From a virus (lineage: Duplodnaviria; Caudoviricetes), in IMG/VR virus record IMGVR_UViG_3300017963_000189: DNA of 64,000 nt; one strand, 5' to 3'. Every line of letters starts with the position of its first letter. Position 1 is the stretch's first letter. Below the pieces are notes generated by a model that was given only the letters and a program-made list of their open reading frames with translations, did not search any database and was not told the origin of the DNA. This document shows positions 8,727 through 32,360 of this stretch, piece by piece. The translations under genes were made by a program, and so were the position numbers.

Positions 8727-10370
8727 TTAGAATTTATCCATAATAAAGTCACTCATTATAGATGGCGCGTTTGTGTCGAAACCAACAACGTCGAGTGAGC
8801 TTCTATCCTTTGGATCAGCAATAGTGAAACCATTCGATGCCATACCAACTACAACTAACTTGACATCGTGACCCACTTTATGACGATAACGATCCATTGC
8901 TTCGCTTGGTTGGATATTTCCTGCCCAAGTTTCATTATCGGTATATACAAAAATCGCGTCAAAATCCTTGTTCATACCAGCGGCCCACAATGCTGGTAAA
9001 GCACAATCAGTTCCACCAAAATCTAACCTGCTAACGTAATTATCCACATCATTCAAACTCATTCTATCGTGTAACTTCAATTCCGTTACATTAGTTAACG
9101 CTTGACCAGAACCATACCAACCACCACCGGTAAATCCAATAATACCCCAGTTCTTTTCAGCTTTCATCGTTACCATAGCCATTGCGGACGATGCGGAACG
9201 ACAACTGATAAATGGAGCGTTTTGAATACCACTACCCATAGAACCAGATACATCCAAAGCAATCAAGATTCTCTTACCCGTAGACTCAATGTTCTTGAAT
9301 GCTTTGTAAAATCCTGCGTCCAAAGCGGAAACGATTTGTGGTACAACGTTCCAAGTATTAGACCCACGAAAACCACGTCCTGCTTCATAGGTTTTCAAAG
9401 CCATTAATAATTGAATAGGATGTACACGTGCTTTCTTTAACGCTTCATCATTAGTGATCTTGTCAACCACTAAGTTGATTTCGTCAAAGTTACCACTTTC
9501 CAAGATACCAACTTTGGATAAGTTACCTAAATTACGAATTAACGCAGTCATAGGCATTGTTGGTAACAACGCTTCGTATACTTTCTTTCCTAAGAATTGT
9601 GTAGGAATAGCTTCCCGTGGCAAGTTATATTCCTTAATCAAGTTCACAATTTCCTTTTCATTTTCGGCTTTCTTTGCTAACTCAAAACCATAAATCATTG
9701 GAATTTTCCTATACTTCTCAATGTCGCCATTGATTCCTTGAGTAATCCAATGGAATACCTTGTTCATATCTTCATTGACGGCTTGTGCATGAGACTTACG
9801 TAAAATGTCACGGTGACTCCACCCGTCACGAGATTGATACTTGACTACTTGATACGCCAACTTGTTGATGTCCTTGTCGGTGTACCACTTGGCGAATGCC
9901 TTACGTAATCCACGACCCCAACCACGCATCGAGTTTACGAACTCTGTGAAATGGAATAAATGAGTACCAATACGTGCTACTTTACTCAAGTTGTCCAAAG
10001 CGTACTTCTTAGCTTCGTCAGTTCCATAGGAAGCAACCATCGCTAATACGAATAACGCTGGATCATTATTAGGTGCACGACCCTCTAAAGAAATCTCAAC
10101 TACACGATTTACAACTTCAATGCCATCTTCCTTGATTAACTTTTCAATGTTCTTAGCATTCTTCTTAGTTAACTTTTGCGCGGATGCGTAATAAGTTGGT
10201 TGATCGCTACCCAATACTAAGAAACGATTTAACTTATCCCACTTGTCCAACTTAAATGAGACGCCACCGCCATAATTCTTAGCCATATCTTTCTTACGAC
10301 CCTTGATTTTTTGGTTTTGTGGAGTTGCTACCTTAGTAGACTTGTTTAAAGTTTTGGTATAATTTTGCAT
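8727..10370 (-). CDS. rsr: Ro60/Rsr TROVE-domain RNA-binding protein with vWA domain
   Basis: FLVLGS..TYY, SRDGWSHRDIL, PMTALIRNL, IALDVSGSM, GGTDCALP, YTDNETWAG, FTIADP; start MQNYT at 10370 after AGGAGG. Confidence 0.95.
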   Translation of the reverse strand: MQNYTKTLNKSTKVATPQNQKIKGRKKDMAKNYGGGVSFKLDKWDKLNRFLVLGSDQPTYYASAQKLTKKNAKNIEKLIKEDGIEVVNRVVEISLEGRAPNNDPALFVLAMVASYGTDEAKKYALDNLSKVARIGTHLFHFTEFVNSMRGWGRGLRKAFAKWYTDKDINKLAYQVVKYQSRDGWSHRDILRKSHAQAVNEDMNKVFHWITQGINGDIEKYRKIPMIYGFELAKKAENEKEIVNLIKEYNLPREAIPTQFLGKKVYEALLPTMPMTALIRNLGNLSKVGILESGNFDEINLVVDKITNDEALKKARVHPIQLLMALKTYEAGRGFRGSNTWNVVPQIVSALDAGFYKAFKNIESTGKRILIALDVSGSMGSGIQNAPFISCRSASSAMAMVTMKAEKNWGIIGFTGGGWYGSGQALTNVTELKLHDRMSLNDVDNYVSRLDFGGTDCALPALWAAGMNKDFDAIFVYTDNETWAGNIQPSEAMDRYRHKVGHDVKLVVVGMASNGFTIADPKDRSSLDVVGFDTNAPSIMSDFIMDKF

Positions 10371-10410
10371 GATTCGACCCTCCTGTTTAAAGGTAAATGT
10401 TATATAAACT

Positions 10411-10439
10411 AAAAAACCCGACAAGATATTTGTCGGGTT
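10411..10439 (-). terminator. Intrinsic terminator between Y-like RNA and rsr start
   Basis: AACCCGACAA-N5-TTGTCGGGTT followed by T-run. Confidence 0.75.
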
Positions 10440-10459: not shown

Positions 10460-10523
10460 TTGGATAAAAAGTTGTTGATGTTATTTTTACGTGTGATCGC
10501 GATAATCATCAACTACGACCCAA
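10460..10523 (-). ncRNA. Y RNA-like RNA A (64 nt)
   Basis: TTGGGT-CGT-AGTTGATGA-TTATC ... CATCAAC ... TTTT-ATCCAA; adjacent to rsr. Confidence 0.7.
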
Positions 10524-10941: not shown

Positions 10942-11030
10942 TGATGGATAAAGGTGGCTAACGAGATTGACGCGCGTCACGTCCTGCGTTTTTTTCGATT
11001 AAAAGATAACGTTAAACCGACGACCCATCA
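10942..11030 (-). ncRNA. Y RNA-like RNA B (89 nt)
   Basis: TGATGGGT-CGT-CGGTTTAACG-TTATC ... CGTTAGCC-ACCTTT-ATCCATCA. Confidence 0.7.
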
Positions 11031-27276: not shown

Positions 27277-27391
27277 ATGGGTAAGTGTCGAATAAGATAA
27301 ATCTCCCAAAGGGAGTTGTGGGGCTTGATCCCACGGCGATCCAGATTCGTAAATCCGACCGCCAACCAGGTAACCTTATCCATCGACCCAC
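27277..27391 (-). ncRNA. Y RNA-like RNA with tRNA-like internal domain
   Basis: GTGGGT-CGA-TGGATAAGG-TTACC ... TCTTATTC-GACACTT-ACCCAT; internal arms CGGTCGGA/TCTGGATCG, GTGGG/CCCAC, CTCCC/GGGAG. Confidence 0.7.
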
Positions 27392-28578: not shown

Positions 28579-28607
28579 AATATACGAAAAAAATGTAAAC
28601 TTGTCAA
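28579..28607 (-). promoter_or_regulatory. sigma70-type promoter (TTGACA-N17-TATATT)
   Basis: Exact match. Confidence 0.8.
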
Positions 28608-28990: not shown

Positions 28991-29067
28991 ATGAACAAGT
29001 ATTGTATTGGAAAGCGGGCATTAGCCCAACTCCATCATGAAAGGATAACCCAATACTTTCGGCTCAT
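28991..29067 (-). ncRNA. Y RNA-like RNA E (77 nt)
   Basis: ATGAGC-CGA-AAGTATTGGG-TTATC ... CCAATAC-AATACTT-GTTCAT. Confidence 0.75.
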
Positions 29068-29429: not shown

Positions 29430-29439
29430 ATATATTTTG

Positions 29440-29512
29440 TAGCACCACCCGGATTCGAACCGAGATCTGTGGGGCGAAAACCCACTATCCTAAACCATTA
29501 GACGATGATGCC
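29440..29512 (-). tRNA. trnE: tRNA-Glu(TTC)
   Basis: Cloverleaf. Confidence 0.9.
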
Positions 29513-29517
29513 ATATA

Positions 29518-29601
29518 ATGAGCAAATAGTTGTCAAGGAATAACCCCGAAGGGCTATTGGATTCGAACCAATTTAACCGATAACCTTAACATTCGGCTCA
29601 T
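29518..29601 (-). ncRNA. YrlA-like Y RNA F with T arm and UUCG-closed acceptor-like stem
   Basis: ATGAGC-CGA-ATGTTAAGG-TTATC, ATTGG-TTCGAAT-CCAAT, AGCCC-TTCG-GGGTT, CCTTGACA-ACTATTT-GCTCAT. Confidence 0.8.
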
Positions 29602-29604
29602 TTG

Positions 29605-29679
29605 TCGGGATAGACGGATTCGAACCGCCGATCCCATGCTCCCAAAGCATGTGCGTTAGCCAGACTACGCTATATCCCG
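29605..29679 (-). tRNA. trnP: tRNA-Pro(TGG)
   Basis: Cloverleaf. Confidence 0.93.
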
Positions 29680-29758: not shown

Positions 29759-29764
29759 ATAATA

Positions 29765-29836
29765 AAACGAACAAGAGTGACCAACGAGTTTTGTTCTTTT
29801 TGACAGGAAAGATAATCGTCAATCTTCGGCTCGTTT
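29765..29836 (-). ncRNA. Y RNA-like RNA G (72 nt)
   Basis: AAACGAGC-CGA-AGATTGACGA-TTATC ... TCGTTGGT-CACTCTT-GTTCGTTT. Confidence 0.75.
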
Positions 29837-32118: not shown

Positions 32119-32147
32119 AATATACTAAATAATTTTTATCTTGTCAA
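32119..32147 (-). promoter_or_regulatory. sigma70-type promoter driving the tRNA/ncRNA array
   Basis: TTGACA-N17-TATATT exact. Confidence 0.8.
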
Positions 32148-32331: not shown

Positions 32332-32360
32332 AATATACAAAATATTAGCATACTTGTCAA
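32332..32360 (-). promoter_or_regulatory. sigma70-type promoter (TTGACA-N17-TATATT)
   Basis: Exact match. Confidence 0.8.

Follow-up and report, generated by a model that had tools for sequence, protein, structure and literature searches.

What fills the gap between the genes for tRNA-Pro(UGG) and tRNA-Glu(UUC) in the tRNA array of a tailed phage? We analyzed a 64,000-nt stretch, here called the window, of the virus with the IMG/VR record IMGVR_UViG_3300017963_000189 (Duplodnaviria; Caudoviricetes). An 84-nt element at positions 29518-29601 occupies the 91-nt gap between the two tRNA genes. An earlier sequence-only reading had described it as a minimal YrlA-like RNA with a true T arm and a UUCG-capped mimic of the acceptor stem, but no D arm. 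We find a real and conserved gene for a small RNA that belongs to the Ro60/Y-RNA system and has the architecture of a reduced YrlA. With a probability of about 0.7, it encodes a Y RNA in a minimal, tRNA-mimicking form that is a partner of the phage's own Ro60.

Chen et al. (2014, PMC4201824) define YrlA RNAs by GNCGAAN0-1G near the 5' end, a motif that they compare with GGUCCGA, the sequence touched by Ro60 in Xenopus. Their T and D stem-loops are nearly invariant, with a closed acceptor-like stem (AS) between them and an optional V stem-loop before the T stem-loop; 254 bacteria and 22 phages have YrlA on the strand of Ro60 and no more than 4 kb from it (PMC4201824). In the crystal structure of Salmonella Typhimurium YrlA, the T stem-loop comprises nt 33-49 and the AS nt 50-64, and two D-loop guanines dock on the T loop (Wang et al. 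2018, 10.1101/312249).

On the minus strand the element begins with AUGAGC-C-GAA-U-GUUAAGG, within which GAGCCGAAUG falls, and ends with CCUUGAC-AACUA-UUU-GCUCAU (Table 1). The two strands form an AUGAGC-C-GAA/UUU-GCUCAU helix with a bulged C, as in the broad class of Y RNAs, in a genome that also encodes Ro60. Together with the GC preceding the bulged C, this strand gives the GNCGAAN0-1G motif as GCCGAAUG (element nt 5-12; 29590-29597, minus strand), by analogy the presumed Ro60 contact site. In single-sequence folding the pair probabilities are 0.63-1.0 in the lower Y stem, 0.98-0.99 in the upper Y stem and 0.96-0.99 in the closed stem. The stem pairing the 5' and 3' ends appears in both the minimum free energy (MFE) and the centroid structures, and the fold has a z-score of -2.45.

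Inside the Y stem, the linker UUAUCGGUUAA contains UUAUC, a motif found family-wide, and continues with GG and an A-rich run, a feature seen in the D-armless members. The perfect T arm and the UUCG-closed hairpin follow one another with no spacer, and the T loop has the same sequence as that of many tRNAs of the window. A tail of 24 nt remains after the closed stem, of which AUU alone lies between the hairpin and the Y-stem 3' strand; these 3 nt are too few for a D arm. On the minus-strand reading, the coordinates, the length, the 5' strand and each arm that the sequence-only reading had described are thus confirmed base for base.

The element is more than a chance match. When the tRNA strand of the window was scanned for perfect 5-bp stems around UUCRANN loops, six such T arms lay outside called tRNAs, the element's being one of them. 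A second scanner required a Y-RNA stem with 6 bp in its lower and 7 bp in its upper part, a bulged C, and GA paired with UU. Its matches, 29518-29601, 28991-29067 and 27277-27391, all lie within the array on the tRNA strand; shuffled windows gave about one match each with both strands combined.

D-armless Y RNAs with a T arm recur across giant-phage and metagenome contigs. IMG/VR was searched with a pattern derived from the window's three GAGCCGAA elements, for which about 80 chance matches were expected by our own estimate; matches were accepted only once they had passed a structural filter, many others being coding sequence or unrelated RNA. The accepted Y-type RNAs form three groups. Simple hairpins of 58-65 nt carry GGUUAUC and a pyrimidine-rich loop. 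Full YrlA-like RNAs have the T arm, the closed stem and the D arm (e.g. L142 3283-3414, L152 9671-9797 and L173 6112-6242). The third group has the T arm and closed stem and lacks the D arm (L094 1225-1336, L143 1985-2097 and L146 4544-4659), all on giant-phage contigs. A more specific pattern returned at least 119 metagenome loci, which include many further tRNA-like Y RNAs with and without the D arm. An earlier IMG/VR pattern, GCCGAA..GGTTCGAATCC..TTTGC, was rejected, as it yielded ordinary tRNAs alone, by chance. The 80 loci around homologs of a neighbouring glycosyltransferase were mostly without tRNA arrays, with L013 the sole useful one.

We built a covariance model (CM R1) of the two Y stems and the T arm from 12 D-armless members, all of them outside the window. 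The closed stem was too variable in length for MAFFT; it was left out of the model and parsed by our own script. A MAFFT alignment of three window paralogs was discarded, its 3' strands being misaligned. The best match of CM R1 in the window is exactly 29518-29601 (59.2 bits, E 3.5e-12), over the full model length (1-113).

The Ro60 protein of the window, used as a single query against IMG/VR, found one close relative, 64-65% identical (64% by tblastn). The record with this most similar Ro60, from which we took L093 and L110, also encodes an ortholog of the element (L110 562-649; CM R1 49.6 bits), directly after a tRNA gene. Relative to the element, the linker UUAUCGGUUAAA and the T stem AUUGG/CCAAU are unchanged, and the T loop UUCGAGU differs at one variable position; the linker in L171 is also nearly the same as the element's. 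The closed stem of the ortholog, AGUCUC-UACG-GAGAUU, retains the first two pairs, has U-A for two of the three inner C-G pairs, gains one pair and again has a UNCG cap. The closed stem is therefore conserved as a structure, with compensatory changes. The upper Y stem has largely changed in sequence with all 8 positions paired, and the lower stem has a U-A to C-G change.

Covariation in the wider family is consistent with this fold. The RNAalifold consensus of the four shortest members (the window element, L110, L190 and L212) contains the lower stem, the T arm with a closed stem abutting it, and some of the upper stem; compensatory changes are seen in 12 of its 20 pairs. In a 27-member alignment, which was fitted to the model and hence leans toward it but with large margins, standard pairs occupy 93.8% of cells, versus 72% in shuffles and 32-46% with slid partners. 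Both-sided changes occur in 16 of the 21 pairs, including three of the five T-stem pairs. All 8 upper-stem pairs covary and five of the six lower-stem pairs are compensatory, the C-G pair beside the bulged C being invariant; the G-U and A-U pairs after the bulged C are retained in 25 of the 27. A hairpin of 4-8 bp starting 0-2 nt past the T stem is present in 20 members, and in 17 of these the remaining 23-27 nt leave room for a short linker and the Y 3' strand alone. The loops of these hairpins are often stable tetraloops (GCAA in nine members; also GAAA, UUCG and UACG). Among the 96 pattern-selected metagenome matches listed, the three free outer T-stem pairs are all formed in 68, with 6 expected by chance, and a hairpin of at least 5 bp follows the T stem in 50, versus 15 in shuffles.

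GG follows UUAUC in all four D-armless RNAs of the small, unbiased IMG/VR set (about two independent lineages) versus two of 77 simple Y RNAs. The metagenome pattern itself required GG, and D-arm members with GG do occur in that set; a restriction of GG to D-armless forms is a speculative reading of the IMG/VR set.

The family is linked to Ro60. The window ORF at 8727-10424 has TROVE (E 2.5e-39) and Ro60 vWA (E 2.7e-56) domains in Pfam and gives full-length alignments with human RO60 (9nen, E 5e-115), Deinococcus radiodurans Rsr (2nvo, 9e-115) and Xenopus Ro (1yvp, 3e-106). By these comparisons it is a true Ro60 ortholog. Its closest homologs from cultured phages, at about 43-44% identity, are annotated as Ro-like RNA-binding proteins and come from Gordonia, Mycobacterium and Sinorhizobium phages. 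All four near-complete phage records with such RNAs have a TROVE gene. Among the matches listed, 54 of the 119 metagenome loci, fetched by the RNA pattern alone and many of them shorter than 2 kb, have a Ro60 homolog. For ten of 20 D-armless members the available stretch includes Ro60, which in every case shares their strand; six of these ten have it 79-420 nt downstream, the classical YrlA/YrlB position.

D-arm-bearing sister RNAs from other phages give full-length matches to the YrlA model RF02553 with 37-44 bits, short of the gathering score of 69 bits; this link is weak, as Ro60-less control genomes give sub-threshold matches too. A further RNA, L201 426-552 (minus strand; metagenomic), matches RF01656 (ceN72-3_ceN74-2) at 42.5 bits, with a gathering score of 38, and adjoins a D-armless Y RNA and a Ro60 gene. 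RF01656, a nematode small-RNA family, belongs to the stem-bulge RNAs, which are regarded as Y RNA homologs.

Several layouts other than that of the element were seen among these RNAs. Five giant-phage D-armless Y RNAs (L094 1225-1336, L143 1985-2097, L146 4544-4659, L208 769-879 and L171 1635-1727) have an extra hairpin before the T arm, with a 7-nt anticodon-like loop CU-NNN-A-A/C (CUUCAAA, CUUAUAA, CUCAUAC, CUAACAC); the window element and its ortholog do not have it. In L181 425-559, L189 1508-1642 and L257 6551-6681, the Y stem encloses a closed hairpin, a D arm, an anticodon-like arm and a T arm, an arm order as in a normal tRNA, unlike the permuted YrlA. L179 1165-1204 and L267 12349-12388 (both minus strand) have a Y-type 5' strand, UUAUCGG and a short T arm that lead straight into a normal tRNA gene, and a Y 3' strand is not recognisable; they may be degenerate or differently closed members. 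The Y-RNA pattern also incidentally caught another conserved RNA-like element, which starts with GGCAAGAGCCGAAUAACUCCGUUUAUCUUGCC, has a variable long hairpin and ends with UCUUUUGCUCUU; it is on the IMG/VR contigs (4-11 kb) L097, L103, L104, L109, L112, L115, L120, L122, L139, L151, L158, L169 and L174.

Table 1. Coordinates of the element, its parts and related features in the window
Feature	Position	Strand	Remarks
Whole element	29518-29601	-	84-nt Y RNA with T arm and closed acceptor-like stem; sequence, Y-stem scanner, CM R1
Lower Y stem, 5' strand AUGAGC	29596-29601	-	Pairs with GCUCAU, 29518-29523
Bulged C (29595), GAA (29592-29594), then U	29591-29595	-	GAA pairs with UUU, 29524-29526
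Upper Y stem, 5' strand GUUAAGG	29584-29590	-	Pairs with CCUUGAC, 29532-29538
Single-stranded linker UUAUCGGUUAA, 11 nt	29573-29583	-	Sequence
T arm AUUGG-UUCGAAU-CCAAU, 17 nt	29556-29572	-	Perfect 5-bp stem, 7-nt loop
Closed acceptor-like stem AGCCC-UUCG-GGGUU, 14 nt	29542-29555	-	Abuts T stem, zero spacer
AUU linker; upper-stem 3' strand; internal loop AACUA	29539-29541; 29532-29538; 29527-29531	-	Sequence
tRNA-Pro(UGG), upstream neighbour	29604-29679	-	Ends 2 nt before the element
tRNA-Glu(UUC), downstream neighbour	29439-29512	-	Starts 5 nt (UAUAU) past the element
Promoter-like site TTGACA-17-TATATT	32119-32147	-	Nearest strong site upstream of the element; consensus match alone
Promoter-like site TTGACA-17-TATATT	28579-28607	-	With 32119-32147, the two best near the array
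Ro60 gene, TROVE and Ro60 vWA	8727-10424	-	Presumed protein partner; same strand, 19 kb from the element
Sister Y RNA, same AUGAGC-C-GAA stem, other loop module	28991-29067	-	Scanner; CM R1 41.4 bits
Sister Y RNA, simple pyrimidine-rich loop	29767-29834 (by eye, about 29764-29836)	-	Seen by eye; CM R1 34.6 bits
Sister Y RNA, extra hairpin, T-like arm and closed stem	27277-27391	-	Scanner; CM R1 32.3 bits
Y-like RNA	10460-10523	-	Weak CM R1 match; 36 nt upstream of Ro60 start
Y-like RNA just after tRNA-Met	about 10945-11030	-	Upstream of Ro60 gene

How close is the element to YrlA? Like YrlA (RF02553), it has a 5' GNCGAAN0-1G motif, an end-paired Ro60-type stem and the module order of stem, T arm and closed stem, the T arm (17 nt) and closed stem (14 nt) being close to those of Salmonella. 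It is encoded on the same strand as Ro60, and YrlA also occurs in phages. Of the YrlA features, the closed acceptor-like stem-loop lies directly 3' of the T arm, and the T stem-loop is conserved in the ortholog and predicted by RNAalifold, with ambivalent single-sequence thermodynamics. Unlike YrlA, the element lacks a D stem-loop 3' of its closed stem; a variable-arm hairpin is also absent, and nothing apart from the Y stem corresponds to the anticodon stem. Its length is 84 nt versus about 114 positions in the RF02553 model, and it lies in a tRNA array about 19 kb from Ro60. Both strands of its Ro60-type helix can be recognised, bulged C included, a further difference from YrlA and a likeness to metazoan Y RNAs.

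The reading of the element as YrlA-like is supported, with two qualifications. The motif, the stem, the T arm, the closed stem and their order stood, as did the Y-RNA identity, which the bulged-C pairing, the genome-encoded Ro60 and the family beside Ro60 genes also support. The D arm, a match to RF02553 and a position less than 4 kb from Ro60 are missing. The element would work like YrlA but is not YrlA in the strict sense, because neither the D arm nor the Rfam match, both of which were tested, was found. The sequence-only reading had also held the element to be the best anchor linking its family to known Y RNAs; the actual anchors are the motif, the Ro60 linkage and the D-arm sister RNAs matching RF02553.

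Other known Y RNAs share part of this design. In concept the closest precedent is Mycobacterium smegmatis YrlB, compared here by the text description available to us and not by sequence. In that text YrlB is a second Rsr-bound RNA with a possible T arm (PMC4201824). As far as the description goes, the element is like YrlB in having the GNCGAA motif and a T arm without a complete tRNA-like domain, and in being one among several Y RNAs of a single Ro60 system; YrlB is there described as processed with YrlA from a precursor beside rsr, whereas the element lies between tRNA genes. Like metazoan Y RNAs and nematode stem-bulge RNAs (RF00019, RF01656), the element has the bulged C, the G-U and A-U pairs, an asymmetric internal loop and an upper stem. 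Its 5' strand corresponds to the metazoan-type GGUCCGA strand, the one contacted by Ro60. Its loop module, unlike theirs, is a tRNA fragment and not a pyrimidine-rich loop, and it has no oligo-U tail. In Thermus phage phiLo, the phage Ro60 binds phage Y-like RNAs and the host PNPase (PMC12135203). Like the element, the phiLo RNAs Yrl1 and Yrl2 are phage-encoded with CGAA in a stem-bulge-stem and a phage Ro60, but they lie just upstream of the Ro60 gene and no tRNA parts are described for them (PMC12135203). The phiLo Ro60 is distantly related to that of the window (E 6e-5).

Several observations weigh against the element being a Y RNA partner of Ro60 in a tRNA-mimicking form. In Rfam searches with 321 nt and 2.7 kb, neither RF02553 nor Y_RNA matched it even at E <= 10, and the 2.7-kb search gave no Rfam match for the sister elements. 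Where the presumed Ro60-contact motif has CGAA, the ortholog has CGCU. The element lies 19 kb from Ro60, beyond the 4 kb typical of YrlA, and the two Y-like RNAs adjacent to Ro60 could be its main partners. The canonical D-loop/T-loop elbow of the YrlA crystal structure cannot form as such because there is no D arm. Nearest-neighbour folding gives an MFE of -23.3 kcal/mol, versus -20.0 for the T-arm model; in the MFE structure, AAU of the T stem is drawn into the UUCG hairpin, which grows to 8 bp, and pairs of the T stem have probabilities of 0.11-0.39 in the element and 0.30-0.67 in the ortholog. Within window 29539-29558 the AUU after the closed stem, and within L110 606-627 the corresponding AU of the ortholog, can pair with AAU of the T-stem 3' strand. 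A two-state fold, in which the closed stem is extended at the expense of the T stem, is possible in both RNAs according to the folding models, and this competing AAU/AUU pairing, retained in the ortholog, might, more speculatively, make the T arm a switch.

Some of these points would fit a tRNA-mimic decoy or sponge independent of Ro60, in which the minihelix soaks up a host or phage factor that recognises T arms or acceptor stems (for example, a defence protein that targets tRNAs, or an enzyme of modification or processing), and the Y stem merely stabilises the RNA. The display of such a mimic on a stable stem would suit a tRNA-rich phage with at least 42 tRNA genes, an Rnl1-type ligase and a kinase-like gene; the distance to Ro60, with two other Y-like RNAs adjoining that gene, and the loss of the CGAA core in the ortholog point the same way. 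We consider a decoy unlikely, as the stem is not generic: the bulged C, the G-U and A-U pairs and UUAUC are common to at least 27 relatives, some of which immediately precede a Ro60 gene on its strand. The element has no anticodon loop and is therefore no decoy for anticodon nucleases.

The neighbourhood might instead suggest a processing or spacer hairpin of the tRNA operon, an entry site for RNase III or RNase E in which the T-arm-like piece is incidental. The element fills the gap almost exactly, with spacers of 2 and 5 nt, and between the promoter-like sites at 32119-32147 and 28579-28607 the minus strand has no comparably strong promoter-like site and no convincing terminator. Most tRNAs of the array, at a typical spacing of 5-10 nt, need no such hairpin, the same type of RNA occurs immediately upstream of Ro60 genes without a downstream tRNA, and a mere cleavage site would not need the T arm, closed stem and linker that are conserved or compensated in the ortholog; this makes a spacer very unlikely. 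Least credible is a functionless, decaying remnant of a tRNA gene, consisting of a T arm and half an acceptor stem. The position in the array and the perfect tRNA-type T arm would agree with it, as would several odd tRNA-like genes in the window. Yet what follows the T arm is a self-complementary hairpin, an acceptor-like stem sealed by UUCG, with no 5' acceptor strand as its partner. There is no D arm and no anticodon arm, no RF00005 match at E <= 10 in the 321-nt search and no ARAGORN call in the gap, and the outer stem bears the Y-RNA motif. Compensatory conservation in the phage with a Ro60 64-65% identical, together with a family of dozens, largely refutes this explanation.

If the element is the partner of Ro60, how might it work? 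It would be transcribed within a long tRNA polycistron and released by the processing of its neighbours, with the 3' processing of tRNA-Pro 2 nt upstream and an RNase P cut 5 nt downstream. We infer from the Xenopus Ro-Y RNA complex, and from the Rsr-bound RNAs with this motif, that Ro60 would bind the bulged-C helix, GCCGAAUG docking on its outer surface. At the far end, the T arm stacked on the UUCG-sealed 5-bp stem would form a 10-bp acceptor/T minihelix with no free ends, in which the T loop would fold and might be modified. This minihelix may be the effector end, bringing a tRNA-recognising factor to Ro60 or Ro60 to the tRNA-handling machinery. For YrlA, Wang et al. proposed an unidentified tRNA-binding protein as the reader of the T/D elbow (2018, 10.1101/312249). 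Candidate effectors are a T-loop modifier such as TruB, the host PNPase (as in RYPER) and tRNA processing or repair enzymes. Precedents are the modification of YrlA by TruB, the tethering of PNPase by Y RNAs, shown for a phage Ro60 (PMC12135203), and the association of Ro60/Y RNA with genes for RNA repair, both in bacteria and in jumbo phages (PMC7824862). The GG of the linker is a tentative candidate for a stand-in of the D loop.

The window has a G+C content of about 33%. All of its open reading frames of at least 150 aa are on the minus strand except one of 180 aa, as are all 42 tRNA genes called by ARAGORN, most of which form one dense array (25-32 kb). Other genes of the window include one for an Rnl1-type RNA ligase and one for an AAA_33 kinase-like protein. 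A megablast of the tRNA array against cultured phages gave no match. Near-consensus promoter-like sites (TTGACA, 17 nt, TATATT) at 32332-32360, 32119-32147 and 28579-28607 head tRNA blocks and share an A-rich AACAGTTGACAA context just upstream. The phage has at least six Y-type RNAs, including the two adjacent to Ro60. These two have a GGGUCGU 5' strand in place of GAGCCGAA, along with the UUAUC motif and closing stems.

In the literature available to us we found no description of a D-armless subclass, of its frequent position upstream of Ro60 or of its placement among phage tRNA genes. The findings on this subclass extend the known Ro60/Y-RNA system and found no new system. A more far-reaching proposal, which we regard as doubtful, is that Y RNAs with a T arm and a sealed acceptor but no D arm are a distinct, widespread class of Ro60 partners in giant phages and many uncultured bacteria or their phages. 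In these RNAs the UUAUC-GG-A-rich linker would replace the D loop, its two Gs docking on the T loop, and this single-hairpin elbow would let the Ro60 particle engage tRNA processing, repair or surveillance during infection.

tRNA-like Y RNAs were already known, and their effector end is still a puzzle. Natural minimal forms reduced to a T arm plus a sealed acceptor-like stem limit the features that the effector can require, and their length of 84 nt suits binding and structural studies. Comparison of these RNAs defines a D-armless subclass not recognised by the Rfam YrlA model. Several Y RNA genes are scattered among the tRNA genes of giant phages, where genome annotation currently overlooks them.

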